A stretch of DNA of 64,000 nucleotides, taken from positions 558,001 to 622,000 of the forward strand of contig QPGO01000025.1 of NCBI GenBank assembly GCA_008632985.1, given 5' to 3'. The notes below the pieces were generated by a model. That model saw only the letters and a list, made by a program, of their open reading frames with translations, ran no database searches and was not told the origin of the DNA. Source of the DNA: Psammoneis japonica. Its lineage: Eukaryota. Shown here one piece after another: positions 2,807-52,309 of this stretch. Numbering within the stretch: position 1 is the stretch's first letter; every line of letters begins with the position of its first letter. The position numbers were made by a program, and so were the translations under genes.

Positions 2807-3080
2807 CGCAAGTTCTGTTGTGAAGCGAAGTGAGTAATTTCGACTGTTTTTGTGAGTAGCATCTTCTGCCCGCGTCGACAAAGCTTCTGAGGTGGTGATG
2901 TGACCAGGTGGTTGGTCGCACAGATGGCGTGTCGTGTGTCGTGGATTTCGTACCGAAGTTGTTGGTTTTTGACTAGTCACGGGTCATTGTAGATTTGAAA
3001 GTGCACCGCAAGATTTATGCACTCCGATGACATCTGTGAAGCCTTTCCGTCGTAGTCTGTCACAAACAACCACAATGACC

Positions 3081-3109: not shown

Positions 3110-6080
3110 TTTCCTTGCCGCGTCGGCCCCTTTTACCTTTTACCCCATGGTGCAGTGAGCTGGACGGCAGGACCAAGAGGGGTGGGACAGCCAGGTGACG
3201 GCCTGATCTACAGCATCTCAGACGGGCTTCACCTTGGTCAATTTCACAAAAGAGTGAGACCAAGGGGAGCCAATCACTGGACACTCAATGCACGCAAACG
3301 GCCCACCCAGCTGGTGTGGCTTCGGCTCTCCTCAATCCTGGCACCCCCCCCCTGGTCTCTGGCGTGCACTTTTGTGCGATGCTGCGGGCTTGAACAGCAA
3401 AAAACATCAGCTTGTGAGATCAAAATGGTGTTTTTCACACAGTTCACCATGCAGCTTCAAATCTTCAAAAACTGGTGCAGCAACGAGCCCAAGAAGAAGT
3501 TGCTGTGCTCAAAGTGACAGACACACACTGTCTTGCATCTGCGCTGCTCCACACTCTGGAGAACAACCTCTTTTGCACAGGCTGTGCCACACAAGGCTTG
3601 GAGCAATCACCCTGTGTGCCAAACATTCCAGCTTGTTGCAGAAGTCCATGGAACAACAGCCAGTTTTTTGACCCCATGACTGCCCGTGAGTTTTGGACAA
3701 CTTGCCAGGGGGCGGGTTTTGCACATTTCTGCATGTCAAGCTCATTTGACACAAGCCAAATTGGGGAAGCAAACTCCAAAACAAAGACTTTTTTGTGCTT
3801 TGTGCTGCAAATCATGCACGTGAACAAAGCGCAATGCCGCCACCATGAACTCTTCCACTCTTCTTGGGTCTTGGGCCAGTGGTGATCATGACCAATGGGG
3901 CAAGCTCTTCACAAGACTCAGCCAAAAATTTGAGGTTTTTGCTGCTTGTTGCATCTCTCACAGAGAGTTTTTTGACTTGCAGTGTTTTTGATGTGTCTTT
4001 GCCTCTCCTTAGATTTCTCACAGCAGGGCTCTTCACAATGCTTGTCTCCATTGACTTGGCACACCAGCTGTGCAAACAACAGCGCCAGCAGCCTCGTGGT
4101 GAGATGGCGGCATGTTTTTTGCTGTGTGTTGTCTGCACCTTGAGCCATTGTGGTCAATGCCTTTGCTTTGACAGCAAGTCTCATGAACACATCAACAATT
4201 TTTGGCATGAACAAAAGAGCAACTCTGTGCAAAGTTTTGAGGGTTTGCACTGCAGCTGAGAAACCTGCAGAGATGTGAGAGGTGCAGCAGGCCCAACGTG
4301 CCATGCAAAGCAGAACAATGACAAATCAGCAATGCTCCAGTGACGAAGCTGTCTTGGTTCATTCTCAGGTGGAGCTTCTCATTTGAAAATTGAAGTTTTG
4401 TCAATGTTTTGTCATCGCTTGTCATGGGGGGGGCACCCGCTCTTTTTGCAACTGAGCTTGTCATGCTGTGAATGAAAAGTGTGGGCATGTTTGTTGAGAA
4501 CAGCTCTCAGATGCAGCAATGGAAGAAATGGCAGAAAAATGGTGGCTCAGAGAGGCAGCAGAACAAACAGCCGTGCACAGCTTCCTGCCACTTTTTTTCA
4601 AAAAACAGAGCTGGCCATCAGAAAAAAGACTTTTTTTGTTGTTGTTGACACCCTCCAAGCAATGAGAGTGATGATCGGCACCTCAAAATGAACAGATCTG
4701 AGGAGAGAAGCAACAAAAAACTGGGAAAAGTCCGCTCAGATCTGTGCGCACAAAGTGTGCAGTGAAGGAAAAATGACATGGGCACAATGTCCAACAACTT
4801 TAGAATGTGCGTTTCTCACCTGGGGTGAAAATGCATTTGTCCACAGAGTCATGTTGTGAGCTTTGAGTTGGTTTGGTCAGGTGTTGCAAACAAACAAGTG
4901 ATTGCCAACAGAAAATGTGGCAATTCATTGCAGAGAGCCTGCTGTGTGCTCAAAAGCCATGGCAGTTGTGGGCATGGCTGGTGCTTGGGCACACTCTCTC
5001 TGGGTGCCAAAGAGTGCATCTAAAGTTGCATGTTGACCAAAAATGTCAAGTGTTTGCAAGCTGTCTCACATTCTGGAAAAGAGGTGGTCAGGAAAAGGGG
5101 CTGTGAAAACAATCTGCATCCAGCTGCATGTGGCTTTGTGTGGCTTGCAATGTTGCATGAACCATGTCATGCACTGGCTCTGTGAGCCCCACCTGGCAAG
5201 AGCCAAAGCTGCCTCATCATGTTGCTGAGAGTTCCAGGGCCTGCCCAAAAAGAAAAAGAGATGACAAGCCCTCTCGAAATGGGTGGCTGCCAAAATTGCT
5301 GTGTGGAGGCAATGATTTTTCAGCTCAAAAGAGCCCAAGATCTGTCTCTCCACATGACCAGGCCTGCAGCAAGGTCACAATTCTGTTGAAACTCTTGCTG
5401 CTGAGAAATTGGCTGCTCTGCTTTTGAAGAACAAAGCCATCTTGTTGCTCCTTGACAAGAAAATGTGGCTCACAGGGGCGCTTTGCAAGGCCATTTGAGA
5501 TTGTTGCAAGCCAGCATCTGATGGCATCTTTGTGTCATCTGCTGGTCAGTGTGAGCACACTTGTGCCCAGCAACCATCTGTTTGCCTCTGCCCAACTTCA
5601 TGTGTGTTGAACCCTGTGCACACCGCAGGTCACTTCACTCCAAAGCCAGTCAGGCATGGAGGTGAGAAGCCCAGCAACACAGCAGAACAGGAACACTCAT
5701 GGAGCATCAGGCTCAAAAACAGAGTGGAGAGCCAGGAGGGCATGGGGGGGGGGGGGGGGGNTGGAGGAGAGACATGATGAATGACAAGGAGAGATGACAG
5801 AGGATTTTTCATGCACTTGGGCTGTGGCCAACACAAAGACTTAGGAACAGGAGCCCACAATGTGAGGTGCCATCAAGAATCTGGGGGCACAAATGGCCAG
5901 CGCATCCAAAAAGGCATCAGCTGCACAGACTGAGGCAAAAGAATGAACAGAAAGAGTCCCAGAAAGGATGAAAAAAGGAGAAGACACTGCAACACGAGAA
6001 GCAACCCAGTGTCCAGACATTGTCATGCATTGTGCTTTATGAATGTCCCAGCTGGCATTGAATGGTTCTGTCACTTTGCG
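3110..6080. other. TpA-depleted, TpG/CpA-rich degenerate block 1 between the cyclase paralogs
   Basis: Only a handful of TA dinucleotides are visible in ~3 kb; ORF translations lack Tyr and are Cys/His/Gln-rich; contains a poly-G run with an N at 5761. Confidence 0.85.
4370..4625 (-). mobile_element. Possible relic of a hAT transposase C-terminal dimerisation domain
   Basis: Fragments 'LCFLKK...SSIAASESCS' and 'VAKRA...DDKTLTKLQFSN' resemble the hAT pattern (L.FWK...ASSAxSERxFS...KRxRL...L.KL.FL..N); heavily degraded. Confidence 0.35.
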
Positions 6081-8693
6081 AACGGTGGAAAAGGCGTTGC
6101 TCCAAAACTTCTCGCGCCCAACGTTCTGCTCGTAAAGATCCCGACGAACTCTGAGACTGACCATCATCATCGACAGTGGAATCATCCCTCCAAGAGGCGT
6201 TTGGAGCTAGCGACGGAATCTCTGAGGAGAGCATCCCCATGGTTGAGCGGCGTGAAACAGTCTCCGAAAACGTATCAGATTCCGATCTTGTAAAGAGCAT
6301 CCTGCTTCTTGAGCTTCGACGAGTCAGAGCCTTGTCCAGCTGATAGAATAGACGTTTGCGATCAACAGCAGTCATCGTCCTTTCCCGCACTGTTTTCTCA
6401 TCAAAGTCAGTCTTGACGAGCATCTTCATTACTTCAATAGAGAGAAGCTCCAACGCACTGTGGTTGACGTAAGAGTTGTTTGGGCTTGCGCCTTCCAACC
6501 AAAAGGTCAACATGTCGCCCTTGCCCTTCATGTTTATTAATCCACGGGGTTTCAGGTAGTATTGTTCACCTGCGCGTTCGGTCAAAAGGTCAAAGGTACG
6601 GCTTGAGCAGTGAATCTTTCCGGATGAACCGGAGCTTTCGTGACGCGCCGTCGTGTTGACCGTGTCTCCAAACACACAGTATCGTGGATTGGTGACCCCC
6701 ACAATGCCGCTGGCGCAGGCTCCTGTATGAATTCCGATGCGCAGTTGAATCGGCTTGTTGTCAAGCGGGGACAGCACGTGCTTGCAGCAATGGTTTACGG
6801 CAATGGCAAAATTGGCAACCTTTTCAGCGTGGTTCGCATCAGCTTGAGGAAGTCCACTGCAGCGCACGTAAGCATCACCGATCGTTTCGACCTTGAATAG
6901 ATCAAACTTCTTGGCGAGGAAATCCATGACGCAATAGAGTCGGTTCAGCATGCCAATAACCTCCCACGGGTACATCTTGTCGCAAATGTTTGTGAAGCCG
7001 ACTATATCAGAGAAGAACATGGTTATATGCTTGTGTAGCATTGGTTCCACCCCTTTACCGGCGCGGAGACCATCTGCTGCATGTCGCGGTAGCAAGGACT
7101 CCAATAGAGACTTTTCTCGTCGTAACGTTTGAGTCATCTGCTCGAGTTTCAGGCTGGAGTTGATCTGTGATGATAGATGCTCGCGAAGAAACATGGCTTC
7201 TCGGCATCCACCATGAACTGGAAGGTTAGACAATGTAAGGTCCATTTCGCGGAGCTCCTCCAAATTTTGTGCGTCGGGAGTTAAAATGAACATCATCTGG
7301 AGAGGGCTCACTGCGATACGTATGGCACTGGCGTTGAAACGCAACTGTGTCAAAGATAGGTTCGACATTGAACAGCTGATCTTCTAGTTTTCGAAGCCAG
7401 CTCCAACCCCAACTGAAGCCACGTGGTTTGGATACTTCAAATATGCTGCCAATGTGCTCGCCAATAAATTCATCATCTTTCTTGCCGAAAAGGTCTGCGA
7501 GGTTTTCACCAACCTGATGAATATTAAACTCCTTGTCTACGATCACATGATGTGGAAAGAGCTTCCTCGTGATCTCCCCAGAAAGTCCAATCGACTTTTG
7601 CGATTCAGTCACACTGGGGTCGACATCAGATGATTCCGGGTAGCTTCCCCGAGAAGATTCAGTGTATGATTCACTGTAGGCCGTTTTCTCACAATCTCGC
7701 GCTGAAGATGTATATTTCCTGCCAAGCATATCTGCGTTTGCCACACTCTGCGAAGTGCAAGAGCCATCGGCATCTTTTTCAAGGATAGCTTGTACAACTT
7801 CACTGTCATCGATAACTTCGGATGCTATTCTCGTGGTGACGACAGTGGTTGGTATGGCTTCAGGAGGTTCCGTCGATGAAAATGCTTTTCCCGTGAAGGG
7901 GCACTTTACTTCAGCAGCGTTTGGCGATGAAATAGAATTTCCTGTGAAGGGACACGTGCCTTCGCTAGGCGTCGGCTTGAATCCATTGGTTGGGCATTTC
8001 GCCTGGGTAAGTTTCCACTGCTCGGACGGGACTTTTGCGGAGATTTGCCATCTACAATCATTACAGCGAGAAATGTTTCACAATGTTAGTAAGGGTAAGA
8101 TATCGAGCCTAAATACACCTGACAGCAACAAGCGGCTGAACTTACGTGGTAAACTTGGCACCGTCAACGTCTTGTTTCTGTCGAAGCAACATCTCAATTT
8201 CAACGCTAAAATGGAACTTGGCAACTTCTTTAACAACTCCTACCGCGAGAGGCACCAGTAAATTCCCTCGATGTGAATGATAATGCAACAACAGTGACCC
8301 ATCACTTGTATCCCCGTCTTCGCACCAAAAGTCTGGCATTGTCATCTTCTTCGGGAAGGTAGCTTGGAGATGTTGGTGCATTGCGTTGATGTTACTCATC
8401 CAGCTTTTCAAAGTATCTCCCTGGCAACAGAGGAGGTTTTCGAAGCCTTCCCGACGGGTGTAAGTCATGAAGTATGCCCCAAATGTCTCCAGCACCGTGT
8501 CAACAGACAAGCCGCTAACTTCACTTGCGGCGACAACAAGATTGATCGTGGATTCGTCCGGATAAGCCTCAAACTTGAGGAACCCCCCGTCAGGTGTGGT
8601 GCATCCCGCTTTTTGTTTTATTAGATGCCACGCATCGAGACCAAACGTCTCAATCACTAGCTTCTCAGTGCAATCATTGATCCACCCCAACAT
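6037..8693 (-). CDS. Soluble guanylate cyclase-like protein, copy B (tandem paralog); intron ~8052-8145; apparent 2-nt frameshift near 7349
   Basis: Same H-NOX, HNOBA and cyclase motifs as copy A, with near-identical DNA over the H-NOX and catalytic parts; ATG at 8693, TAA at 6037-6039. Confidence 0.9.
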
Positions 8694-8823
8694 CGTAACT
8701 CCTCGTCTGGAAAGCAGTGTTTGCCGCAACTACAGTATCTGCCGTGTGGGTCTGATTTGGAGATTTGCAGAGAGACTTGTGATTGGAGTTGGTGACACCT
8801 GCGTGTCAGGTTTTTGTCGCATG

Positions 8824-16905: not shown

Positions 16906-17133
16906 CACAACCTCGTTTGATGAGAATTTTTCTTAAATTTTCTCATGAAACGTTCACAACCTCCGTTTGAATGAGCATTTTTCCAAAATTTTTTATGAAA
17001 CGCTCACAACCTCCGTTTGATGAGAATTTTTCCCAACTTTTCTCATGAAACGCTCACAACCTCCGCACCGTTTGATGAGAATTTTTCTGAAATTTTCTCA
17101 TGAAACGCTCACAACTCACAACCTCCGTTTGAT
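16906..17133. repeat. Tandem array of ~4.5 x 50-bp units, each an imperfect hairpin
   Basis: Unit CACAACCTCCGTTTGATGAGAATTTTTCYYAAATTTTCTCATGAAACGCT starting near 16906, 16955, 17005 and 17055; CGTTTGATGAGAA pairs with TTCTCATGAAACG (1 mismatch). Confidence 0.9.
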
Positions 17134-18689
17134 TGCCATGATGCCTACGAACGGTGCACGGTGCCCCCTGCCTCCAACAACTGCATCCTCTTCTGTGCTC
17201 CGTCTTGCCCCTGCCTCAAAGAAGACACTTGGTGAGCAAACAGTTTCATCGCAATGCGCTGCGGTGCTGTTCGCCGGGAGAAAAGCAGCTCGCTTCGCTT
17301 GGCAGAAAGCAGAAATGCTGCAGGATCACCTGCCAGTGCCACCAACAATCAAGGATGAGCCAAAGGAGCAGTCCGAGGAGGAATTTTTTTTTCTTCAAAT
17401 CAAGCAGCAAAGCCGAATCTTTTTGGGGAGGTTTGGATGAATGGCGGAGTTTTGGATGGCGACTCAACGTTGTTGCTGATTGCCGCCGTGCTGCCATCCA
17501 TCTGTCTAACCAACATGCACTGGGACGAGATGGTGGCCACTTCATCAGCCCCAGTCGTGCCCACAGACGTCAGTTAGTTGCTCACACAGGTTTGTGGCTG
17601 GTTGGGCTCAGGCCAATACTTCACAAAGACGCATGGCAGGAGTCACGTTGAGGGCCAAGCAACCTCTGGTTTGGAGGCATCTGTCTTGTCACCAGGGTAG
17701 AAGAAGCCATGCCAGGACCAGAGATCACACCACCCAAGATTGTCATCATGGTCGTTGATTGTTCCTGCAATGTGTTTGACCATTGTGCTGCCCATCGCCT
17801 GTTTAAGAGAAACGTGCCCCTTGGAGTAACTTGAATCCAAGGATGGAACAACAAGGTGGCAAAAACAACAGCCAATCCAACCCGTGACTTGGCAAATGGA
17901 GAATTCATGAATCAACTGTTGTGCTTGGGGGTGCGTCTTTTGTGGCCTGTCGTGAGATGCAAAACTGCAAAAATCCAACAAGAGCAGTCCAAAGACACCT
18001 GCACATGACAGCGCTGCTTCACCCTCCACAACTGCAAAAAGGCTGCTTTGCAGTGATTGTTTTGTGGCACCAACAAATGCCATGACAGACTGCTCAAGTT
18101 GAATCAATTGTTCATGGATGATCCCCTGGTGGTTCTGTGTCAGCTCATGCCTGGAAACACGGATTGCCATCAGTCGCAGAAACATGGTCAGTTTGCCGAT
18201 GTCTTGTGGGTCAGCCTTTTAAAGAACCTTTCCCAAATTGAGGTGGAAGCCGTTGTCATCTTGCCTTCAAAGTCAAAATCTAGATTTCCATCAGGAAGCC
18301 TTTCTTTGGTCTCTTGCGAATGTGTTGTGGAGGATGTGGAAGGCTCCAGTTTCAAGTTGAGTCCACACCCTTGCTTGGTGTGAACAATTGCTTGGTGGGA
18401 GGGAAAGGATGACAGATGCACCTGCTGCACCAGAAACACTTTGGTTGACAGAGGAGGAAACATGCAGTCAATTTGCTGTGACCTGTGCCTGTCAGCTGCT
18501 GTGCTTGCTTTGCGCTCAAATGCCAACAGCCCTGCACTGTCAAGTTGAGGTGTCTGTGGCTTTCTCTCTAAACACACATTTTGCCATGAACTGTGTCTCT
18601 GCCCATTGGCTGTTGTCTTTTCTCTTGTTTTCTTGTCTCTCCACCAGCTGTTGAGGGGCAGTCTCTGCTGAGTTTTTTTGCACTGCCTG

Positions 18690-19550
18690 TCTCAGTTTCC
18701 CCTTCCTTCAATGCCCGTTTTGGTCTTGATGTGTTCCAGACCATCATTGCAGCTCCCACTGTGGTTCGTTTCGGGGGTCTGCATGTGCATGCCCTTGCAA
18801 AGCTTCACCAGTTCCTGGAGGGCAGTTGCATCTTGTGAAATCATGTCAAAGGGCATTTTGTGGGCCAGGGTGCCCGACTCGAGCTCCGTTTCACCCCTGA
18901 GGAGTTGGCACTGAATCGCGCCGGCAGCATGCATGTGCTTGCGGCACCACACAACTTGATTTTGGGGCTTCCATTTCCATTCAAGATGGACTCTGGGCAA
19001 TGTGCCATTTTGTCCCAATGCACAGTGTTTGCTCTTCATCCAAGTCTGCTTGCGAGCCAAACCAAAGTCACCAACTTTCAGCATAAGACCATCAGCACCC
19101 ATGAAAATGTTGTCGGGCTTCAGATCATGGTGAACAATCTTCTGGCTTGTCCAAGCCTTTAACGCAGATAGAATTTGCTTGGATGAGGACAATCCAATGC
19201 CTTGTCTTCTTCAGATTGGACTTGCTGATTTTGATTTGGTTTGTCAATGTGGAGCCAGAGCACAGCTCCATGACAGTGCCCATCATGAGCTTGCTGTTGC
19301 TGTTGCTCTTCTTGGCATTGGACGCCTTTGCTTCTGGCTGATTGACAATGAACCAACCAAAACTCGAACGACATTCTTATGATTGAGTTGACTCTGGCAG
19401 TGAACCAGCCAACAAAAGCATTTTGCAAATCGGGCTGGTCACACAGCTCCAGCTTGAGTGCCGCACGACACCCCTTTGCTTCGCCACTGAAGACAACTCC
19501 CCAGGCACCATTTCCCAGGATGTCGACCAAACCAAATTGTTCATGTTCCA
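18690..19550 (-). pseudogene. Degenerate Ser/Thr protein kinase
   Basis: ILGNGAWGVVFSG...AALKLE (subdomains I-II) and IVHHDLKPDNIF...LKVGDFGLA (VIb-VII) lie in different frames; HRD reads HHD. Confidence 0.8.
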
Positions 19551-22500
19551 CAGAAGACCGATTCAGCCTGCTCCAGAGGTGTTTTGGGCTCCTTCAAAGG
19601 CTGCTGCAGGGCTTTGGCCAGCCCTGCAAAACAAGAGTCTTGTTGTTCTGCTGATGGATTCTGGAGAATTCAAGCCACTTTTGAAGTTTGGAATTGTTCG
19701 TGAAAGCATTCAGACTGAAAACAGGATCAATGGCGGCATTGCAGCTTGCCTCTTTCCAATTGTCTCCATTGCAGAGACCTGCCAATGCATTGGAGATGAA
19801 CGGAAATGCGGAGATTTGCAGCAAGCCAAAAGGAGGTGGGACACTGGCTGGGACACTGGCTTGAAGCCGATCGTGTGTGCCCACACGTGGAACAAGCTCA
19901 TCCAGAGCACTGGCAACCTCAACTCGGCTCTTCAATGAAATGTAGTTGTCGCTTGAATGCAGAGTTTGCAAAGGGTCCCAACGGCTTCCTCTGTGCAGCC
20001 ACAAGGAGGAGACAGGAATGCGGGGCCACTGCTCATTCCCTCGACACCAATGTTGTCAACCCTGGTTGGTTTCGAGAGGTTGGAACCAAAATGAAAGCTC
20101 ACGGTCTCCACCTGAAGGATTGCACTCACATGCCAAATTGGAACTTTGGGTTTGCCTCTGCAACTGCTTCACAGTCTTGAAGCATTTCTTGAGCTTGTCT
20201 TCCATCTTCCGAAAGCACAGCATCAAACAGTCCGAGGAAGGAGTCACCACCCAGGAGCAGTTGGAGCACTTGGCACTTGATCATCTTCTTTTTTTCAAAT
20301 GGATCTGTTTCAACAACATTGAGCTCCAACTCATCTGCCAACCGCTGACAGTGTTTGACTCCATCACTGTAGAGAAAGACCCCCTTGAGCAGGTGCATCG
20401 TGAAATGATGGAGAAGTTCTTTTGGTGGGCTTCATCATCACAGTCTAAGATCAACTTGCGGATTGCAGAGATGAAGTCTGCAACCAACATGCAAAGATAT
20501 TGATTGCGCAACCTTCCATGTGAGGACACTGTGCTTGAGAAGACCTGTGTAAGAAGTTCAAAGATCTTCTATCATTGTCACCAAGGGCTCCCTTGTTGCA
20601 GTTTTCTTCCAGGCAAAGCTTCTTTTGGAGAAGACACATCCCATGGAGTTTGCAAATGCAGTGTTTCCACATGCCACCCAAAGCTGCCCCAACAGACTTG
20701 TTGGCATTGGGAATCCTTTGAGTTGCTAAACAAGTGACATCAGTGACTTCCTGCGTGACTCCCCATGAGGCAAGTTGTCCTCACAGATGATCGGGGTGCA
20801 GGACTTTTCATCTTTGGCAGTGGAAGATTTCTCGAGTTTCACGCTGGCCTCTTGTTCATGATTCTTTGAGAATGGACCAAGGTTTTGATCTTGGAACACA
20901 TTGGTTGCTTTCAGTGTGCTTCTGCACTTTGGGCTTTGGCATTTTAGCTGGTGTTTTGGGATTTGAGCCATCTTGTGGTCACTCAACAAAACAAGCAATG
21001 TGGTCCTGAACAAAGTTCCAAAGTTGTGTGTGTCTTTGCTCTGCTGCCTGCTGTCTTTTTGTTTTGAGTTTTTGTCTTGAGATCACGCACAGGGAAACTG
21101 TGAATCTTTTCATGAATGATTCCAAACTCCACTGTGCTGTCGAGCAAGTGAGCGCACGATTCTTCCTTCCAGGTTAAAAAAGCACACAGTCTGTGACAAA
21201 AAAGGCACTTGCACATGGACTGGACGAAAGAATGTCATCTCAGAAATTGGCAAGAGAAAGCACAGTCAACAGGGCCCTGCCACCTCCCAAAAAATGAGCA
21301 GCTTGTGAGTTGCCCCACATTTGCTCACTCATTCAGCGCTGTTTCAAACACGAAAGTGAGAGAACCCCCAATGCCACAACAGGCTTGTAGTCAAGAGAAG
21401 GAAAAATGCACCCAGTGACCAACTTGAAACTGCCAGCCGTGAGCAGCCTCCTGGGCTTCAGCAAGCTGTTCCTCCTCTTTGTTGGTTGGCAGATGCTTCA
21501 ACAGTTCATCACACAATGCCTTGTTCTCATCAGCAGCAGCCCCCTCTCCACACAGCAGCACCCAATGCATCTGCAGCAGCCAAGACTGTTGCATCAGAAG
21601 ACACATCTGATGCAGCCAAGGCACACCCCAAAAGCAAGAGTGTCCAAGTCACCCATGTGTGATGCCAGTGACATGCTGGGCCAAATCAAAAAAGGAGCCA
21701 GCAGTGTCACAATGGCGCATTGGCTCCTGGGAGCTCATTGATCCAGGAAACCATTGAAAATCTGCCGGATCATTGCGCTGGTCCAAAGCAAACAATGGTC
21801 CACCTTTGCAACCAACAAGAGCTGTTGGCAGCATGAAGATGCCCCACGCCACTCTTCCATGCCACACCCAAAGGGAAATCAGCATCGGATCAAACACACA
21901 ACAACCCTGATCCTGGGATGCTCATCAACAGTCTCCCATGAAACCAAGCCATCAAGCCTTTTGGGACCAACGTCACAACAGATGCTCAGAAAAGGTCAAG
22001 TGAAATCAATGTTGGAGGATGATTCTTGATGGCATCAGAAACAGTCACAACGCTGATGCTTTTGGGAACAAAGAATGGCAGCATGCATGAGAACATCATC
22101 CCGTTCACACAAAAGCATGTCACATCATGTCCATGTCCATGCTGTGCAGATGTGTGGTGTGCAGAATGAAACACCAACAATGCAGCACTGCATTGATCAA
22201 AAAAACACCATTGAATCTCTCTCAACAAGGACATGGGTTGCTCCTGCACTTCACTGTTGATCACCTGGGTGGTCACAACTTCTTCTTTTGCTGCTTCCTC
22301 TTCAGATCTTCACTTTCTGCCACCTGTCCCAAGCACCCAAGCCTCCCTCCTGGTGACTTCTTCTCTGCAACAGCAGAGACTTGGACAACTCTGGCAGAAT
22401 TTCTTGCACTGCTTTCATTCACACCCTCTCGCATCTCCCACCTCTCTCCTTTCATCTGCCAATTGCCTGTCATCACCACACATTTTCCCTTTGGCTGCAA

Positions 22501-24949
22501 CAGGCAGCATGCATCACCTTTCCACCCATGTGATCTCCCATCTGCTCCTCTCGGCCCCCTGGTGTGTGCAGAGACACCTTCCCAGCCCCCATCTGCAAAG
22601 TCGTGCCCTGCATGCTGTGCTGTGCAACCCTTCTGCTCCTCCATTCTGACTGCCCTTTTGAAGCCTCCATCTTCTATCATTCACACCTCTGCTTGGGCTC
22701 TTTGGCCCCTTGCTTGAATTGTGCAAAGACAGAGGAAGCTTGGGCTCAGTGGATTTGCTGTGTGTGCAAAAAGATTGACTTTGGAATCTGCACTCCACAA
22801 CCAAATGTTGTGCTCTGAATGATGCCAACCCAGCACCTTGGCAGCCTGTGAGCAGCTGGTGTTCTTCAACTCCACATTCCATGATGTCAAAGCAACAAAC
22901 ACAAAAATCTTTCAACAAGGCGTGTCCCAGGTGGAATGACATGATGAACATGTGTTTTTTTTTGCAAGTCACCATGGTGGTGTGTGGTTGTTTTTGACAA
23001 CTTCTTTCAATCTTGCAATTGCAGAAGTGATGCCAATTGACAACATGGACATGACATGAGTTGCAAAGAGAAAATGGTGAATGCTGACAGTGTTTTCTTT
23101 CCAAAATGGACCTCTTTGCATTCATGGGATTTTTGCAGGTCTTTCATGCATCACAGAAAGTCAATGCACAAAGCAACTAAAACAGATCTTTGTGGCACAG
23201 AAATGACATTGTGGACCAATTTGGATGCAGCATGGATTCGATGGCAACATCTTCATGTTGAATGATTGTAGAGCAGGTGGTCAAAGTGGTGCAAGAAGAG
23301 GGAGCAGAAACTTTTCAATTGAAAGCTCTGAAGCCTCCACATGTTTGCAGCTGTTGCTGCAGACCAATGAAAACATTCCAGTTTTGATGGTTTCATTTTT
23401 GTTGCCACAAGGCAGAAATTTGATGCCAATTTGGGTGGTCATTGTCACTGTGTGTTGGTGTTTGTTCTTTGCATTTTTTGTTTTGGCTGATGAAATCTCA
23501 TGGAGCACTTGACCTTGAGCTGGTGACCTCCTTCTTGGTGTGGCAGCAAAAATTCCAAAGTGTTTTGGTCACAGATTTCCCATTTTTTCAGGAATCCTTC
23601 AGGCAAAAAAAGATCCTTCAGGCCCACTTTTTCCCAAAAACAAAGTTTGCACCCACATCACTGAGTGGAGCAGGAAAAATGGCCAACCATGACCAACAAG
23701 CATGAGACCACAAATTGGCTGCTTGGGAGCAAATAAAGGAGATGTGGTGGCTGCTGATGGAGAGACAGCACACTGAAAAGTGGAGCTTCCAAGTCATTTG
23801 TGGAAGGAAGGGCAGTTTCTGCACACAAGAATGAACCAAAGAGCAATGCTGGGCAGCAGCTGCAAGATTTTTGCAGAAGCTGTTGGTTCATTTGCATGGG
23901 AGCCACGGCTGCACAATTGTCTCATTGGGTGACTGCCAAGAAAACAGCAGTGGGTGGGTGGGTCCAGTTTTGAGCTGTGCCATGTTTTTTGTCCTGTCTG
24001 GTGCCAATGGCCTGTGCTGGCATCTTCCATCCTCAGCTGTCTGTCTGTCCTCCACTCATCTGCTCCATGTGACAACCAGCTGTGACTTGCTTGGTCCATG
24101 ACATCTTCCCATTTCTTGGCTCAGAGTCTTGACTGTGATGTGCATCTTTTTTCAGAGCTCACAGATCATCTGTGACCCATGGTGCAGTCTCAACACTTGA
24201 GTCATTGAGATTGCAGGGCCGCTGTTGGTGCCACAAAAGAAGTGTTGAAGCATGGCTGAAGTGTTGGATCATGTCTGAGGAAAATTGAGTGGGGAAGCAA
24301 CATCTTGAGATGGGAGCAGTGTTGGGAAACAGGCAAACAAAACATTCCCACACCCCACATGTGCACTTTGAAGGCTTTGACACCATCTTCAAGGCCCTCT
24401 TCCTGATGCTGGGTTGTGGCTCTCACCCACTCTTGGACACAGGCAGGCATTTCAAAATGCAACAAAATGCTTTGCCCCACTGTGGTGCTGGGGCTAGCAG
24501 TGGTGCATCATCAAGCCCTTGTTGAGTTAGAGGGACTCGTCATTTTCTCAAACATTTTGAGGGCAGTTGGCAACAGCATGCTTTGACAAACATTTGGCTT
24601 TCTTTCTGTTTAAACTGCAGAAAAGAAGTTGAAGAGCTTGGGTGGTGGCAGGCATTGCAGGGCACTTGTGCCTTTTGTCAGCTCTTGGACAGGCTTCTCA
24701 TCTTCATTTGCCACATCCTCACATTTGTTTCAATCTGCTCCAAGCTTTGTCTCTGTGTTCTGGCAGAGACATTTTTTCTTCATGCTCACAGAGCCACAAC
24801 CAACAAACAACTCATTGACCAATGCATGGAAATTGAACAGCAGCAACAGTGCCACACCCAAGAGCAAAATGAAAACATTGTCAATGACAGTTGTCTGTGA
24901 ATTGCAGTCATTGTTGAGATTGCAGCTGCAATTTGACAAAAAATGAGCT

Positions 24950-26350
24950 CAAGAAATCAAGGTTTTGTCATGATGCAATGTGACTCTTGTGACGGCAACA
25001 CAAAACAACAAGATGACACACTCAGCCTCAATCTCCATGGTTGAAGGTGAGTCATGACTCTCCCTCTCAACCAAGAAAGAGGTTGAGCTGCCAGCCCATT
25101 GTGAGAGCCTTTCACCCATCCAGAGCATTTCCACAGAGACACCCTTTCATGCACTGGTCAGCAATGGCTCAGCAGCACTGACAGGTTGAGTGGCAATCTT
25201 CAAATTCTCCACTTCAGTGCAAAACCAGTGATGTGGAATGCCCATGTGTTTGGTTGGTGGAGTGAGTTTTGGCACGTGGGCAAATGTGAGAGACAGGCAG
25301 CAACATTGTCTCACACACAAAAGATGCTGGCAGCAGGGTTGTGGGGTCAATGGGAGATTCATTGGCACCATCATCTTTGCAGCATGAGATGCTTGAAGCA
25401 GAGTGCAGGAAAACTGAGCTGCTTGGTGGGTGGCATGCATGATGTCTCCTGACCTGTGGCTGTGGCTGCGTGATGCATTGGCACCCTTGCAACAGCACAA
25501 CAGATCAGTGGCTCATTGAAAGGCAAGCTGTCCTTGTCCACACCACTGCTCTTGGGCAAGCAGGGAGCAGGTGTTCCCATGCAATCTTCCATCTTGGTGG
25601 CTGGCATGGCCCAGGAAGGCCTTCTTGACAAGTCCAGACAAGTTGGCAAAAACAGCGCTTCTTCATCTTGATTCTGAGGAAGTTTCTGACCTCTCCTTTT
25701 CATTGCAGCACTCAAATTCATGGTGCTTTTTGTGTTCAGCAGAGGGGCTCTCCTCCAGCCTTGTGGAATTGGCCTCAAGTTTGTTGGAGCATTGTCAGCA
25801 GAAACAGCATCATCAACATGAGTGGCACGCAGTGCATCCTTCTTGAAACATGCAGACAGATGAGGTTGACAGCAGATCATGGGATTCATCTGGCTGTGCT
25901 CCAGCACCAGCAACAGACCAGCTCTCAGTTTCTCACAAAAGCATCACAGAGATTGCTTCAGGCCATGTGAGCCTTTCAAAAGTCATGTGGCACCATTGTC
26001 AGTCCAGACAATGCTGGCACAAATCCCTCAGGAGAGGCTGTGCACACACACTCTGGCTGAGTTGACCTGAGCTTGTTGTGAAAATGCAGCAGTGCAGTTG
26101 ACGACTTGATGTGTGGCCCACGCTTCCTTGAGAGAACAGCAGCAAGCAAGAGGCAGATGCCAACCCACCACTCCACATTTCTGCTGAAGGTTGCCACAAA
26201 CACAATGTTGTGCCTTCCACTTTTCATGGAGCACCACAATCCCATGAGGGTCTCTTGAGTCTCAAAGCTTGCATGCTGGATTGTGGCACAGTCACTCACA
26301 TCTTGAGTGCACTGCTCAACAATTGCCCACGCACAACTCAAAGCCAGCAC
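24950..26350 (-). mobile_element. Ty1/copia LTR retrotransposon relic (reverse transcriptase to RNase H start)
   Basis: HVDD (YVDD), TPA...GVDKD..PFNE, RSGDIMHATHQAAQF (RPDIAFAVHQCARF) and STMEIEAEC (STMEAEY), in the expected order on the minus strand. Confidence 0.75.
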
Positions 26351-27039
26351 AGCTGCTTCAAGTTTTCACAACCTCAGCCCAGTTGCCACAGTCTGGTTTG
26401 TTCTGAGCTTGATGCAAAGATGGCACATCAGACTCTGGTCTTCTTGGTGGCAGCACAGGCTTGCTCGTCCTTGTCTTGGACAGAATTCATTTTGTGCTTC
26501 CATGTTGAGATGCAAGTTTCCACCAATGCAAGCTGTGCAAGTTGCAATTTCTTGTGTCCAACCAGCACATTTTTGGACTCAACAACTGGACCAAGATGTG
26601 ATTCATCAAAAAAGGGCTTGGGGCAGACAAAACTGACCTTTGCTGGACTCAGCAGACCACTCAAACTTGGCTGGGCTTCAACTTGAGTGGAGATGCTTGA
26701 GATGCTGCAGGTGGTTGCAATGTTTTGGGTGGTGGAAGCTCATTCTGTCCAGCTGTTTCTGATGATGGTTTGGCAATGGAAGGCAGCAGGAGCCTCAGGC
26801 TTCTGAGTTTTGGGTGACAAAACTTGAGAGAAGTCCTCATCCATGGTCACAGGAATGATGTGCCAAAGATGGTCATCTGAGCTGGAGTTGGTGTGATGGG
26901 CAGTCAGATGCTGGACACAAGCCCAGGATTGGGTTGAAAAGTTTGACAGATGTGAGATTCATGTGCCAGCGGGCTCTGTTGCAGACAATCTTCTGGAAAT
27001 CTTGAGAAACCAGACAAAGTGCTCAAGAGGCTTCATGCT

Positions 27040-28450
27040 AGATTTTGAGTGCACCACAAAGTTGATCTTTGCCAAACTCACCCTGAAGGCACTCAACCCT
27101 CAATGAAACAGGTGTCAAGGCAATTGAGCATGCAGCTGAGCCACAGAAAAAAAGTGCTGCACTTATTTTCTGCAGGAATGATTGAATGCCACCAAGATGC
27201 ATGGTTGCACTGTTCAGACATTTTGGTGCCCCTTGGAAGACTTGCAGACAGGGCTTGCAAATGGCACTCATCAATGACAAAGCACTCAATGACGTCAAGC
27301 GTGCAACATCTGAAGAGACATTGTTTGTGCACCCAGATTGCAATGAGCCATTTGAAGTGCACGACAATGCCTTTGGTGATCATCAGGAGCATGGAGCAGT
27401 GATGTTGCAGGCTGGCAGACAACTGGTGTGCACTCTGCACCAGAAAGCTTGACAGCACTCAGCTGAGCCATAAAGTGCAGGAGAGGAAATTGCTCACCAC
27501 TGTCAAGACTTTGACAGAACTCAGATCTGGTGCTCCACTTCTTGGCCATTGTGTTGGTTGTGCACACTGGTCATAAAATTTTCACTTGCAAGGCATTCAG
27601 TGCTGAGCATGCAGTGCATTGTTGGCACTTGACACATGAAGAATGTGGTGTGAATCATGACACAGCATCAAAGGTCACCACAGTTTGGTTGCACCAGAGC
27701 GCCGAGTGCCATCCCAACCTCACTCCATCCTTGGACTCCATGGCAGCAGATGTAATGCTGGAAGTGGTGCATTCTCTTTTAGGAAGCCTTCATGGTGGAA
27801 AACCAGAGGACAGTTGGATGACTCCCATCAGCTTCAAGAAACTGTGAACAAAACAAAATGAGAGGACAAGAGCCCAGGCAGAAAGAAGCTTGAGTGTCAG
27901 ATGAGTGCTCTCCACACACTCTTCTTTGTGGGGAAGGGCAAGCTTCCACAAGACAGTTGATTTGCCACAAGGACAAAATCATCATCCCAGTGTCACCTTG
28001 TTTGGTTCTGCCATGGGTCCCCAAATTTCACCAGGATCACCACCCTTTTGTTTGCAGTGTTCTTCTGCAGGGAGTGTGGGTTTCTTTGGAATCACCATGA
28101 GCACCCCTTTGTCACACACTGATGTGTGACACAGACAGACATGCATCAAAACTGGCACATTGGGAATTCTGGCCCACGCTTCCCCTGTCCCCTGCACTCT
28201 CACTCTGTCATGAGCCATGAGCTGTGAGCCTGGGACATGGAAGAAAATGTGCCAGTCAAATGATGATTGATTGCATTGTCCCATCAACACCACAGCCCTG
28301 CACCATGAGCTTGTCACAGAAGCATGCCACAGCATTGGGGCAGAAACAACTTGTGGTTGTTTCATTCATTTTCATTCAAGACTGGATGAGTGCAAAATCT
28401 TCACTTTTTTGGCTTGGCACTGACTTGTGTCATTGCTTGTCAAAGTCAAA
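27040..28450 (+). mobile_element. Ty3/gypsy LTR retrotransposon relic (RT end, RNase H, integrase start)
   Basis: ETLFVHPDCNEPFEVHDNA...GAVMLQAG (LxYPDFNxPFxIYTDAS..QLGAVIxQ), CWHLTHEECG (RWRLLLEEYG), LICHKDKIIIP. Confidence 0.7.
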
Positions 28451-31400
28451 TCCTCTCCATTTGCACCTTCTTGGCTGCAAGCAATGGCATGGAAACTTGT
28501 GCATGTTTTTGTTGTTTTCTCTCAGTGGCTTTGTTTTTGTTTAAGAAGAACCCTTGTTTTGGCATTCATTGCAAAATGATTTTCTTTTTTCAAGAAGCAA
28601 GCTCACCCATCATGGACTGCATTTTTTCTCAGTGCAGTGCAGGTTGTCAGCCCATGTGATGCCTTGGCATTGTTTGTTTGTTTGTTTGTTTCTGTGTCAG
28701 CTGTCAGCCATGGCAGGACCACAGTTCTGAGATGATTTGAGGTGAACGCAGTCTGGGGCCTCATTTTTGGTTGGCACGTCAGGGCCCTGAGATTTTCATT
28801 GATGTTTTTGCATGGCTGCAGCACTGGTTTCTTGCTGCTTGAGAAGATTTGAGTGCACAGAGCCACTCGAGACACTCCAGCAGTGACACCAAGTCAAAAG
28901 GTGAGCTCAGGTGACAAAATTGCCAAAGGTCAGTTTGCAAACCCGCTCAATGGGGCTTGCACTTTTTGCAGGTTGCCATGAAATGCACCTCCTGAAGATG
29001 AGACACAGCACAGCTCCCCTGGACCAAGTTGCCCAATTGGACCACACCAATCCAAATAGAGTTCTTGTTGCATTGTTCATCAACAAAAGCCAGTCATCAT
29101 TTACAGAGTGATTTCCAGTGCTTGGATTGCTGAGAGAAAACTCTGCACCACATTTGCAAAGTTTGGCACCCACTCCACTTTTTTGGCTCTTGTGCAGAGA
29201 GTTGTTCTTGTTGACCTGCGCTGTTCTTGTTCACGGTGAACACCACCACCCTGATGTGCATGACATGCTTCTCCCAGTCTCTGTTGCACAGCACCCAATC
29301 CACATCATTGAGAGAGACTGCACATTGTTTTGGTGCAGGCTGGATGGCTGAACACATGCATGGATGGATGACTGTGGCTGAATCCACAAAGCACTGCTCG
29401 CGATGCTGAAAACACACCTGCCCAAAAACAGTCATTGATTTTTTGCTGTGGTCCACTTGTTTTTTCTTCCTCTCCCCTGAGCCCTTTCAGGCATTCTTCC
29501 TTCACACAAAATTGCTCTCATTTCCTGGGTGTTCCCCCCAAAAGGGCAAGGTGACTCCCCCCTGCACCCTGGTCATTTTGGGGATCCCCCAAATGGGAAA
29601 AAACCAAACTGCCAGATGAGCATTGTTGCTGCGCAGCAGAAGCAGATGAGACTGGGTGGTGTCATCTCCAGTTCTTGTGCCATCCTGGAGAGAGGCACAA
29701 GCTGAAATGTCCATTGCTCAACACACCTCTGCTGGTGTGGTGTGTGAGCTGTGGTGCACTCCAGCACATGCTCGAAGTGCAAAGCATGTCAGCAGAGAAA
29801 ACAAAAAAATGAAATCAAAAACATGAGAAAAAGTTGCCAGAATGGGTGCAGCTGAAATCTGATGTTGCCCCACTGGATGAATCCCCATGCACAGTGGATG
29901 TGACAGGGGCACACACTGACTGTTCAGCATTGAGGGGAACTCTTCCACTTCTTGTGGGGCAGATGTGACAGTTGACCCTGCAACAGGGAAGCTCAAGATT
30001 GCTGAAGCACTTGCTGAGTTTGCTGACATTGTGTCTGTGGCACCATTGAGCAAGCACAGCTCTGCAGATGTCCATGACCAAGAAAGACAATCTTTGACAC
30101 CAGAGAAGCCAAATTCATGGCTGAATTTAACCAATGATGCAGGACAACTGTAGCCTTCTAAAGAAACCTGGAGTGCACATGCCAGACAGCCAGAAACATG
30201 TTTCACTCATTTTCAGTGCAGGGTGTGGTGCCAAGCAAAGATGACCCATCTTGGAGTGGCCTGCCACCTCGCACTCATTCACCACACACACAAGCTGTGC
30301 ACACAACACCACATGAGCAAGCCCAACACAACTGGTGTTCAGCAGAGATGCTCGCACATTGAGCCAAGCAGAAATGTGCCAGGACAGAAGGCAGAGAGGA
30401 TGAGCTGCCCAGACAAACAACAAGCAAGAAAACACTGAGTGCAAGGAGTGCCAACATGCTGTCAGATGTCAGACAACTGGCACTTGTCAAACAGGAAGAA
30501 CAAAGGTCCAAATGAGGAGCTGACAGTTGTGCAGCAGGCCCTGGCAGAGTTGTCCATGCAAATGACAACAGCACATTGTGGCACGTGCAAGATGGCATGC
30601 TGACAGACACAGCACACCACAAATCCATGGAAGATTGTGCCCTGCCCTGTTGTCAGCAAGCAAGAAGGCATCTGCTGGCACTCTGAGGCCCTTGTTGTTG
30701 TGGAGAGCATGCAGTGCATGCACTGTGCTGACAGCTGGCAGATGTGCCAGCAATGTCTTGCATCATGAGACTCTCAAAGCAGGGGGTGCACAGCTCAAAA
30801 GTGCTTTTGTGCAAAAGTCAGCATGAGACTCATGCTTGTTCCACTGAGTGGGTGTGTTTCAACAAGGCTGAGTGTCAAAGACCCACATCATGAGGATTGC
30901 ACATTCAACTGGTGGTCTTCCAAAATCATGCCTGGTGAATGAAAGCTCTGTGCACAAGGTTTTGCCTGCTGTGCAGTGTTCACTGAAAACCAAAATGATG
31001 TTGGAGCGAAGCTTTTTGTTTGCAAGCTGTGGCAGTTGCAGCACACATGTGTGGTGTGAAGAGAGTGCAAAGCTCACATGGCCAAATGTTTTGCTGCAAC
31101 ATGTGCGCCAACTCAGAAACAGCTCTCTTGGCTCTCACAATTGCCAGCCACAGCAATCTTTGCAGCTGCTTGGACACCCATCTCCCAATTTGGTGCACGA
31201 GGCACAAAAAACAAGTGTGCAATGCTTCCCACGTGGATCTGTTGGACATGGGTTGGTGCAGAGCTGACACAATGTGTGGTCAATGGCCACAGTCCTTTGC
31301 ACGCCAAGTCACCACTCTGTGTCCTCAGACCAAAGCAAGAAAAAGCACATTCTCACACTGGCTGGTGACACCTGCACTCCTGGAAATGGACCAGCACAAC

Positions 31401-31994
31401 AGCCGCTCAAAGTGGACAACGTCGACATGTGCAAGCAATGCAAGCGGTTTAGGGCCTATAACGTTATACAATTGTTGCTCGACACATGCAAAGTATAAGC
31501 AACTCGAAACTTTCGCTGGCATTACACAGATGTTAAATCGAAATTTTTGGACAGTCCTTGTTTCACAACGGTAAAGCTCGGTGAATCGTTCGCCGAATTG
31601 CCGCGCAAATCGCCAGCAAGACACTGCTTTATGAGGCTCTCTATGACTTAGAAAGTAGATTCTTTCGGTAGAAGATCGTTGCTTATTCGTCAAGTAAGGT
31701 TATGTCTATTCTATCAGCATGTAAAATCAAGAGATATCGCCGTTGTTTCCATGCTTTTTAACACGGTGAAGTACGTACGTAATTTTGTACCAAGCGCTAC
31801 TGCATGCTCAAATGCTGTGGTTTTGCTGACAAAGGTAAATATCCCGCGGATACATCGCACATCCAACATCGCATCGCCACAAAGATGGTGGCAAAGTAAC
31901 ACTCGTAGTCGTCGCAAAGACGCACCCGAGCAGTTCGGGAAGCTTTTGTATCAACCGGAGGAATAGCTCAAACTATAAAGTGTGTCTGGGAGAT

Positions 31995-50600: not shown

Positions 50601-52309
50601 GAGTTGTTAAGGCTTTTATTTCCTTTATCATGGTCGTCTTCGCATGCTTTGAGCTTGCGCACGTGCGGTGCGTGCATGCACGAGGAACGCACTCGTAAGC
50701 TCAGCAACCTAAAAAACATAAAGGAGAAAAAAGAGGACGACGCTTGTTGAGCTCATCTAAAAAAGAAGTGCAAGTGCCTTTTTTGTCAACCAACTGAAGA
50801 AATAAGAGAACTCACCCAATTGACACCACCAAATCATCTAATGGGTTGGGTGGATCAGGCAGTTGTCTCGCTTGAGCAAGGATTTGAGGATGGCATGACC
50901 TTCTCCTCTCTCGAGAAGCTCGCAGAGAGGGGTTGAAGATGGCGGCAGCAGCTGCCTTGTCTGTGTGTGTCCTCAGTTGCTGCCTGCAAATTTTGTGCAC
51001 ACTGGGTGCTCTGCTTTGGTGGCAAAGCTTTTTGGTGGCAGCAGTGGCACAATTGGCAGCAAAGGCAGTGCACGCAAGCTGGGGGGGGGAATGTCTCTTT
51101 TTGCAAATAATCCAATCATGGTGAGAATCGCCATGGAAAGAAGAGGCGAAAGCAAGACATTTGTTGCATCAATTGAGCTGTCTCTCTTGCAACTTTTCCC
51201 ATCTCTGACATTGATGTTGTGCTGTTCACCCCAATTTTGCAGGGTCACTTGTGTGCTGGCGCTTCACACCAGTGCTTTGAAGAGTCGAGCGACAGCTGGC
51301 GGCCCTTCTCAAAACATGCTCTTTTGCCTCATTTGTGCAACATGTGGCATGACTGCACATGTGCTCACAACATTAAAAAAGGCAGATGTGCTGACCAATG
51401 GCTCTTCCAGATGTTTGTTTGACCTTGCAGCTGCAACAATGAGACGACAGTGTTGAAAACATCCTGAACCTCTTTTTGCAAGTTGACCCACCACTTGACT
51501 GCCTCATCACAAATGGAAACATTGCTCCAAGGACAAGCTCACCTCTGAGGCTTCAAAGACAGCTTCCTTCCAAGAGAGTGTTTGAGCAACAAACATTCAC
51601 CTGCTTGCTTCATTCAATGTGTTCCCGTGGAGCTGTTGCCATTGCGATTGAGTGCTTGAGAAAGCAAGTGGAGCACGGAGGGAGCACTCCACTCCCTGGT
51701 CCACAAAAGCCCCCAAACGATTTGCTCAAGCAAGATTTGACAGAACTTGGCCCCTGTCACACAGAGCATTGCAAAATTTGGGCCATGGGCAGATGCCCTT
51801 GCAGTGCAGCCACACATTGAGACCCACCAGTGTGTCGTCACCCTGTGGATTCTTCACCTGTGTGCTTCGTCAAAGACAATCATGCCAGACAAGGTTCTTG
51901 CAGCTTCAATGGCATTTTTTTGTTTGAAAGAAATCCCATGGGGTGAGCTGTTTCTTCCAGGCAAGACCCCCCCCCAGTTGGATGAGAAAATTCTCTTTTT
52001 CCCAAACATTGCTCGCTTGATGGGCAGGACAGTTGATGCAACCAATGTTGTTCAAAGCCCGTTTTGCATCCAAATGCAAGTTCCAGCAAAGATCTGTCAA
52101 TCCCTCAAAGGAGCACAGCAGCAAAGATGCAATGGTGACTGGCAGCAGCCAAGGCTGCACCCTCTAATTTTGCAGCAGAGACAAGACCTGTCACAGTGGC
52201 AAACAGAAATTTGCAGCTGGCACAAGCATCAAAAAACAGCGCAAGGCAAACATGCAGGAGAGAGAGAGAGAGAGAGTCCTTGCACACCTTGCCCTTGGCC
52301 AACTTTTCA

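Follow-up and report, generated by a model that had tools for sequence, protein, structure and literature searches.

We analysed a stretch of 64,000 nucleotides from the diatom Psammoneis japonica (contig QPGO01000025.1, positions 558,001 to 622,000; hereafter the window) in which three blocks, at 3210-6037, 17147-31449 and 50840-63788, are almost free of the dinucleotide TA and poor in CG. Together the blocks cover 30,079 bases, 47% of the window, and with these re-set limits the block coordinates of a preliminary description of the same DNA held. The TA and CG steps of the blocks were turned into TG and CA in place, in the chromosome, and the loss of TA is separable from the loss of CG, as a copia relic on an environmental contig of a second lineage (L027) demonstrates. 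From these sequences we consider it likely that the blocks are old, silent and largely unrecognisable DNA on which two domain-limited transition processes have acted in place, a hypermutation at TpA and a decay of CpG.

Composition and borders of the blocks

Block limits were set from observed/expected ratios (o/e) of dinucleotides in sliding 1-kb windows. Within the blocks these windows have a TA o/e of 0.00-0.12 and a CG o/e of 0.03-0.5, with TG and CA at 1.5-2.3, while elsewhere TA lies mostly at 0.4-0.75 and CG at about 0.7-1.3. In absolute numbers, the blocks hold 67 TA steps (o/e 0.03) against 1302 (0.59) in the 33,920 bases outside, and 379 CG steps (0.22) against 2039 (1.01), with Fisher p values of 2e-271 for TA and 1e-240 for CG. 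TG reaches 3460 (1.78) in the blocks against 2499 (1.15) outside, and CA 3256 (1.81) against 2279 (1.10). Blocks and gene islands thus differ in their TA o/e, in agreement with the preliminary description.

The losses and gains balance. Neither GC content (0.484 inside the blocks, 0.488 outside) nor the pooled share of pyrimidine-purine steps among dinucleotides (23.8% and 23.9%) is changed, and the combined loss of TA and CG in frequency (0.084) is met by a combined gain of TG and CA (0.082). AA and TT are not depleted, at 0.080 and 0.084 in the blocks and 0.075 and 0.075 outside. The TG-CA skew stays at or below 0.14 (absolute) in 23 of the 25 non-satellite 1-kb windows, indicating that both strands are about equally affected. 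We then modelled the conversion by turning 93.7% of the TA and 81.8% of the CG steps of the flanking sequence randomly into TG or CA. The model reproduced the 16 dinucleotide shifts (r 0.96), and the root-mean-square deviation fell from 0.022 to 0.006. Since both processes yield TG or CA, TA and CG vanish and TG and CA become twice as frequent, without a change in GC content or in the order of purines and pyrimidines.

Block edges were also placed by maximum-likelihood change-points, separately for TA and CG, and at five of the six edges the two change-points fall within 46-176 bp of each other. For block 1 they lie at 3210 and 6133 for TA and at 3386 and 6079 for CG. The right edge of block 2 is a step at 31445-31450: the DNA is TA-free from ~31000 to 31449 (~450 bp), and beyond it a TA occurs about every 10 bp. 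The left edge of this block is fuzzier, with the TA change-point at 16831 and that of CG at 17569; the mismatch is confined to this edge because a 50-bp tandem repeat there is TA-poor but has retained CG. The 400 bp that directly follow block 2 are TA-rich and non-coding, which rules out gene selection as the cause of the sharp edges.

Evidence for change in place

Block 1 is flanked by tandem duplicates of a soluble-guanylate-cyclase-like gene (HNOB, HNOBA and cyclase domains), here in a diatom, and these duplicates served as a control. Copies A and B are 91.9% identical over 2.65 kb, with 179 mismatches, a transition/transversion ratio of 1.3 and normal TA and CG, and none of the 57 changed pyrimidine-purine steps has TG in one copy facing CA in the other. 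Such double differences would arise from an ancestral TA or CG that went to TG on one side of the pair and to CA on the other. At the right edge of block 1 (6062-6075), the ~12 bp that lead into copy B show TA>TG and CG>CA changes relative to copy A, and from the block edge onward copy B keeps every TA and CG. A 2.65-kb tandem duplicate has thus remained unaffected, indicating that duplication as such is not the trigger.

The repeats inside block 3 behave otherwise. Among its short-range repeats (52292-53479, 55156-55713, 60631-61490 and 61792-61915), 20 of 36 changed pyrimidine-purine steps are TG-versus-CA double differences (Fisher test against the cyclase control, 7e-11), and the repeat pairs are 85-92% alike in purine/pyrimidine space but 72-83% alike in nucleotides. 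Neighbouring duplicates resolved the same steps differently, which indicates that they mutated after duplication, in the chromosome. Two sites of the satellite unit in this block vary, one between GCGC, GCAC and GTGC and the other between CCGCC, CTGCC and CCACC, so that CG is ancestral there and decays both ways. Foreign DNA with an inborn TA- and CG-free composition is ruled out by these differences between local duplicates, together with the polarised changes in L027. The claim of the preliminary description that a region-limited change of TA to TG or CA followed insertion, on top of CpG loss, is borne out by the double differences, the polarised relic and the sharp edges.

To check the assembly itself, we aligned to 15500-33500 the contigs of a publicly available DNA sequencing run, made from what is probably the sample behind the assembly (library type unrecorded). 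They covered 30 of 30 bins at a k-mer depth of ~50-60, equal to that of the flanking genes. A contig of 11.4 kb across the neighbouring gene had no differences, and block 2 was covered by short contigs that differ from the assembly by 1-2%. Of the 221 aligned records, 54 were at least 99% alike, 66 were 95-99% and 101 were 90-95% alike. The differences between contigs and assembly run about equally in both directions (A>G 76, G>A 71, C>T 68, T>C 61, transversions 88). G>A and C>T do not dominate among them, as they would if the reads carried TA or CG at TG or CA sites of the assembly; TA is thus not restored by the reads. By k-mer depth block 2 is mostly single-copy, with spikes at 22712-23312, 29323-29923 and 31126-31726 (depths 224, 401 and 180), indicating that some pieces of the block are repeated in the genome. 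Among the 40 of 377 comparison rows listed, 32 differences lie in the block; 23 of them are transitions that interconvert TA, CG, TG and CA, and these include two adjacent TG/CA exchanges and four sites with TA against TG or CA.

These reads bear on the idea of a sequencing or assembly artefact, for instance modified bases miscalled in heavily modified heterochromatin. The signature is indeed extreme and coincides with regions likely to bear base modifications, and the reads come only from the assembly's own sample. Nevertheless, the blocks are recovered in accurate k-mer contigs at a depth of ~50-60 whose differences are symmetric, independently assembled contigs of other projects (L026 and L027) show this signature too, the changes in L027 are coherent Tyr>Cys and Tyr>His replacements against intact relatives, and repeats inside a block differ by TG/CA pairs, which miscalling would not produce. 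We therefore regard an artefact as extremely improbable.

We further scanned metagenome contigs for relatives of the aminotransferase gene that flanks the blocks, which gave 80 loci with 719,032 bases in 2597 1-kb windows. Only 17 of these windows had a TA o/e below 0.25: six in L026, ten in L027 and one in a GC-rich contig without TG/CA excess. L026, L027 and L029 are versions of a single locus from closely related genomes, with 97.5-100% identity in the part that they share. In these contigs the aminotransferase gene is 44% identical to that of the window and has a DUF285/F-box gene beside it; L027 is an environmental contig of a second diatom-like lineage.

Positions 5-2655 of L027 hold the 3′ portion of a Ty1/copia element (RVT_2 at E 1e-5, under the Pfam cut-off), 59-76% identical to P0122 in tblastn, and the TA-poor zone ends about where the element ends. 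The relic has 232 relatives at E of 1e-5 or below, those with names coming from Nitzschia and Fragilaria, and four that are 78% identical, with 1535-1677 residues, were taken as intact references. Two scans of viral contigs gave no DNA of intact copia relatives, and the spectrum was polarised with protein alignments and the codons of the relic. Of the 573 covered columns conserved among all four relatives, 71 differ in the relic: TA>TG 22, TA>CA 14, CG>TG or CA 4, other transitions 10, transversions 8, multi-step changes 11 and stops 2. Changes of TA to TG or CA thus account for 36 of the 58 polarised single-step changes, an excess over the ten other transitions that agrees with the preliminary description. 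The 24 conserved tyrosines of the relic became Cys (12), His (8), Asp (2) or Phe (1), and one was kept. When each intact relative was compared with the other three, it kept 41 of 42-45 tyrosines, with no Tyr>Cys and one Tyr>His change overall. The intact relatives accordingly keep their Tyr codons, as the preliminary description requires, a result that concerns the copia family of L027 and not the window's own elements.

Per kb, the relic contains 4.9 TA and 69 CG steps and the remaining contig 47 and 51. A rough estimate gives a loss exponent of 3.2 for each conserved Tyr TA step, whereas other differences that change an amino acid amount to 0.06 per codon. TA loss that is near complete with CG intact indicates that TA loss is separate from, and faster than, CpG decay.

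Two further observations were made at this locus. The genomes of L026 and L027 are 97.5% identical over a shared 3.9 kb, yet upstream of it, at the same place, they have different, non-homologous TA-free sequences (L026:1-1300 and L027:1-3060), of which one has its CG halved and one has CG at a normal level. Hypermutated elements may thus be polymorphic for insertion here. In L027:3001-4500 and L029:5501-7500, TA is moderately low at 0.29-0.45, CG is at 0.31-0.65 and TG and CA are raised, in L027 inside an apparently intact, internally repetitive DUF285/F-box gene; this could stem from codon usage or from a limited action of the process seen in the blocks.

That the identified target in L027 is a retroelement, at whose end the TA-poor zone stops, would suit an editing before integration, of retroelement RNA or cDNA or of replicating viral DNA in the manner of APOBEC3 or ADAR, with the blocks as pre-edited insertions; very sharp block edges would also follow from it. 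However, the effect is just as strong in a satellite, a kinase fragment and local tandem duplicates, ancestral steps shared by adjacent duplicates of block 3 went to TG on one side and to CA on the other, so that these duplicates mutated after duplication, both strands are hit about equally, and TA/TG and TA/CA differences persist among the reads. In the chlorarachniophyte Bigelowiella natans, moreover, mutations of this type arose in integrated single-copy DNA in culture, according to the text of a preprint (Mettrop et al., bioRxiv 10.64898/2026.01.13.699255). Editing before integration is thus very unlikely, and change in the resident chromosome is the reading we retain.

Flanking bases and the candidate agent

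To describe the step that is struck, we compared the contexts of the TAs that remain. Of the residual TAs in the blocks, 35 of 65 stand in YTAR (Y, pyrimidine; R, purine) against 237 of 1298 outside (p 5e-10), and only three stand in RTAY; CTAG, CTAA and TTAG are among the surviving contexts. The 18 residual TAs of L027 include eight YTAR and no RTAY. The products are asymmetric too: the ratio of RCAR plus YTGY to RTGR plus YCAY is 1.30-1.76 in each of the five block segments and 0.91-1.12 in each of the three flanks (chi2 41.7, p 1e-10). Among the polarised Tyr codons of L027, YTAY gave ten TG and three CA, and RTAY gave two TG and five CA (Fisher 0.06). Tentatively, then, these sequences suggest that the base struck is mainly the A of 5′-TAY-3′, equivalent to the T of 5′-RTA-3′. 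CG survives best in GCGC in the blocks (0.40 against 0.12-0.21 in other contexts), and the flank effects run in opposite ways, YTAR being most resistant for TA and RCGY, especially GCGC, for CG.

This opposition matters for the possibility that one machinery makes transitions at both CG and TA, either a dual A/C deaminase or repair on methylated domains, so that both losses are the same process. The TA and CG edges are common at five of the six edges, both losses end in TG or CA with GC balanced, and ADAT2-type enzymes that deaminate A as well as C are cited in the B. natans preprint text. In contrast, the L027 relic lost ~90% of its TA and no CG, with 36 TA-type against four CG-type polarised changes, the satellite and block 2a differ strongly in the degree of TA and CG loss, the flank effects are opposed, and the preprint text gives de novo changes in B. 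natans at TpA only (bioRxiv 10.64898/2026.01.13.699255). A single machinery is therefore improbable, and two processes remain the preferred reading.

The two steps would work as follows. In the first, a TpA-specific A:T>G:C hypermutation would turn TA into TG or CA depending on the strand struck; it would be fast and by now saturated, with 94-95% of the TA steps gone, and of the same kind as the one measured directly in B. natans. In the second, a slower CpG decay would turn CG into TG or CA, most simply through deamination of 5-methylcytosine (5mC) on methylated repeats. The TpA process would halt within tens of bases at the block edges and would not be triggered by duplication as such. Targeting may proceed via silencing marks or small RNAs, and the process may serve genome defence.

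As to the agent, the preliminary description had named error-prone repair by polymerase eta among its candidates. Both this repair, acting at WA (W, A or T), and an ADAR-like editing with a loose 5′ preference give A>G with a preference for a 5′ T, and repair tracts could be limited to marked chromatin. However, AA and TT are undepleted, although a WA preference or the U=A>C>G preference of ADARs should also erode AA; the polymerase-eta signature therefore fits poorly. The undepleted AA and the low TG-CA skew speak against A>G changes at ApA and against strand-asymmetric clusters tied to transcripts. ADARs prefer a 3′ G, and diatoms are not known to have ADARs. TAG is not the most sensitive context here, and CTAG, CTAA and TTAG survive, unlike what that preference would give. 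Compared with a TA-strict deaminase, either of these agents is very improbable. By analogy with known enzymes, a polynucleotide adenine deaminase of the TadA/ADAT2 type is a tentative candidate, which we rank ahead of the others but short of a probable one, and an oxidative modification of T at TpA appears unlikely; other causes take up the remaining, sizeable share of probability.

Several points weigh against the account given here. The conversion model is too low for GC steps (0.059 against 0.074) and too high for AT (0.064 against 0.054), and its ancestral composition was borrowed from neighbouring, mostly coding sequence. L027 belongs to another lineage (44% identity), and its retained CG may be due to the young age of the relic or to a lack of methylation, and need not mean that the mechanisms are independent. 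The blocks yielded a kinase relic, a satellite and depth spikes and no transposable-element or viral domain, and their origin from foreign or transposon DNA is putative. The confirming reads probably come from the same sample as the assembly. Deamination of A and modification of T are indistinguishable by sequence because TpA is self-complementary. For the flank rule, the polarised Tyr test is small (n=20, p=0.06), and the TG-versus-CA doubles, expected mainly in symmetric flanks, lie in asymmetric flanks in eight of 16 cases and so do not support it. The product asymmetry in the window is inseparable into TA- and CG-derived changes, and normal DNA of L027 already has a product ratio of 1.3 (171 against 128), with 140 against 126 in L027:1-3000.

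Contents of the window, related systems and meaning

The gene islands consist of ordinary, intron-poor genes: the two tandem HNOB/HNOBA/guanylate-cyclase genes, a CLC channel, a methyltransferase, a class-II amidotransferase, an aminotransferase, a 3R-Myb, a JmjC/F-box and a DUF285 protein. The ten named taxa among the best 120 relatives of the aminotransferase are all diatoms (48-53% identity), and its closest match is 64% identical. The window thus comes from a diatom that has no close relative in the collection searched, and not from Bigelowiella. The features of the window that bear on the blocks are collected in Table 1.

Table 1. Blocks, control genes and repeat features in the 64,000-nucleotide window
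Feature	Position	Strand	Remarks
Guanylate-cyclase copy A (HNOBA + cyclase), control	163..2811 (gene 142-2811)	-	not hypermutated, TA o/e ~0.5
Block 1, anonymous TA/CG-depleted DNA between two tandem guanylate-cyclase copies	3210..6075		TA o/e 0.01-0.08, CG 0.08-0.41
Guanylate-cyclase copy B, control	6067..8698 (gene 6040-8729)	-	directly adjoins block 1, not hypermutated
50-bp tandem repeat, four copies, left edge of block 2	16906..17115		TA-poor, CG kept
Block 2 (flagged in the preliminary description), 14.3 kb, TA/CG-depleted	17147..31449		left part (to ~21500) less decayed than right
Protein-kinase relic, inside block 2	18695..19210	-	Pkinase E 6e-11 on open reading frame (Pfam)
Block 3, 12.9 kb, TA/CG-depleted, with satellite	50840..63788		
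17-bp satellite, ~170 units, inside block 3	56532..59558		TA o/e 0.00-0.04, CG 0.4-0.5

The preliminary description had seen copia, gypsy, kinase, possible hAT and satellite relics in the blocks. The kinase fragment and the satellite were recovered, and the copia, gypsy and hAT relics were not. In a Pfam search of the open reading frames (ORFs) of at least 140 residues in the window and of a six-frame read-through of block 2, the kinase fragment was the sole credible block relic, and 145 ORF segments of block 3 and 53 of block 1 (198 in all) gave no credible match. Weak Pfam matches (Nucleoporin_FG2, Reticulon, HpaP and others, E 2e-4 to 1e-2) were below the curated cut-offs and were taken as chance. 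With 120 diatom copia polyproteins as queries, tblastn returned no high-scoring segment pairs in the window. Blocks 1 and 2 were also recoded into purines and pyrimidines, a recoding chosen since changes of TA and CG to TG and CA leave that sequence unaltered, and no concealed long terminal or terminal inverted repeat was found in them. The kinase relic aligns to catalytic cores of MAP kinases (E 2e-7), with ~100 residues alignable against PDB, which is too short for a substitution spectrum; its invariant HRD reads HHD, with the codon CAT, as CGT>CAT would give. A word-indexed search with the relic for longer relatives gave no match.

Some side observations concern the same DNA. The blocks are rich in long spurious ORFs in all six frames, such as one of 940 residues at 56492-59311 on the minus strand; because only TGA stops are possible in TA-free DNA, gene callers would over-predict there. 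Block 1 holds one N, at position 5761. At the other end of the scale from the blocks, the intergenic DNA at 8500-10000, which lies upstream of the second cyclase gene, has an unusually high TA o/e of 1.04-1.09, with AG/CT also high at ~1.3. At 44400-45982 a 318-bp repeat occurs five times in frame, with 73-80% identity between the copies by blastn (82% matches in TRF), within a 1202-residue ORF (43878-47483, plus strand) without an informative Pfam domain.

The preliminary description knew of no system of this kind, a statement that is now outdated. In the literature searched for this signature, we found one description and no report from diatoms or stramenopiles. Of the 302 nuclear mutations in mutation-accumulation lines of B. 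natans, 231 were located in an integrated giant virus and a virophage, at a rate of ~6e-7 (about 1000-fold elevated); 230 of these 231 were A>G or T>C, all of them at TpA (Mettrop et al., bioRxiv 10.64898/2026.01.13.699255). The same text reports 124 genomic clusters of TpA-poor, CpA- and TpG-rich windows, enriched in reverse-transcriptase and DDE domains, and proposes an ADAT2-like deaminase; for natural DNA editing by TadA/ADAT2-type enzymes it cites amphioxus and trypanosomes only.

The blocks resemble this case closely. A:T>G:C changes at TpA that give TpG or CpA are found here by mass balance and model in the window and in polarised form in L027. They occur on both strands and in discrete repeat stretches, presumably silent by analogy, beside normally evolving genes (three blocks with step-like edges), and the footprint of TpA-poor, CpA- and TpG-rich windows is the same. 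The differences are as follows. B. natans is a chlorarachniophyte (Rhizaria), whereas P. japonica is a diatom (stramenopile). Loss is saturated here, with a TA o/e of 0.03 over 47% of the window, against a Rho of 0.45 in the nucleocytoplasmic large DNA virus region of B. natans. Strong CpG loss is co-located here and a flank preference is seen, whereas the text of the preprint contains no occurrence of 'CpG', no diatoms and no motif beyond TpA. Finally, a de novo rate was measured there, whereas the blocks give a footprint only.

Other systems share parts of the signature. Repeat-induced point mutation (RIP) of ascomycetes is likewise defence-like, restricted to transitions and to segments, selective for a dinucleotide and sharply set off from genes, and leaves unrecognisable relics. 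However, RIP makes TpA from CpA and TpG, where TpA is destroyed here, it is triggered by duplication, where the 2.65-kb tandem cyclase duplicate was left untouched, and it lowers GC, which is constant here. Decay of CpG through 5mC deamination agrees with the change of CG to TG and CA, the TG/CA excess, the restriction to repeats, the ancestral CG of the satellite and the depletion of CG to an o/e of 0.22, and diatom transposable elements are CG-methylated through DNMT5a (Hoguin et al. 2023, PMC9998398, in the part consulted). It covers the CG half only, as it neither removes TA nor holds GC constant. APOBEC3 and ADAR enzymes of animals also inactivate mobile elements by deaminase-type transition hypermutation with a preference for the neighbouring base, but they act strand-asymmetrically on cDNA or RNA intermediates, whereas resident chromosomal DNA is changed here on both strands. 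APOBEC3 strikes C at TC or CC rather than A or T at TpA, and the need for a 5′ T, with AA spared, looks strict here, unlike in either enzyme. TadA/ADAT2 enzymes and the base editors derived from TadA give A>G after a 5′ pyrimidine, some variants with a 3′ C; the variant ABE8e-A48E, for example, edits A in a 'YAC' context according to a review (PMC13109818, in the part consulted). This resembles the TAY preference seen here, and by this analogy the blocks may be linked to TadA/ADAT2 deaminases.

In the literature searched, targeted A:T>G:C hypermutation of chromosomes was thus described only once, in a preprint of 2026 that concerns one rhizarian alga. New here are its occurrence in diatoms, the saturation of TA loss, the co-located CpG decay, the separability of both processes and a candidate flank preference. 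L027 provides material with TA loss and without CG loss, which separates the two processes, and the flank preference (TAY struck, YTAR spared), together with base-pair-sharp borders, narrows the search for the enzyme and its guide. For diatom assemblies, TA-free and CG-poor blocks are a simple marker of long-silenced DNA, which itself evades homology-based transposon annotation and gives long spurious ORFs.

On a more far-reaching and less certain reading, a chromosomal DNA editor would recognise silenced foreign or repeat DNA with base-pair-sharp limits, preferring the A of TAY (the T of RTA), and its editing would be independent of, and faster than, the decay of methylated CpG. Some diatoms would then have turned a large share of their genome TA-free, with no Tyr codons, no TAA or TAG stops and no TATA or AATAAA signals. 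The saturated footprint in one diatom and the younger copia relic in a second diatom-like lineage indicate that the process is not limited to one species. TpA hypermutation might even be a conserved genome defence common to diatoms and chlorarachniophytes, perhaps old in the SAR (stramenopiles, alveolates and Rhizaria) supergroup, a proposal that we hold as plausible and make with reserve. The TpA process may be widespread in ecologically dominant phytoplankton.

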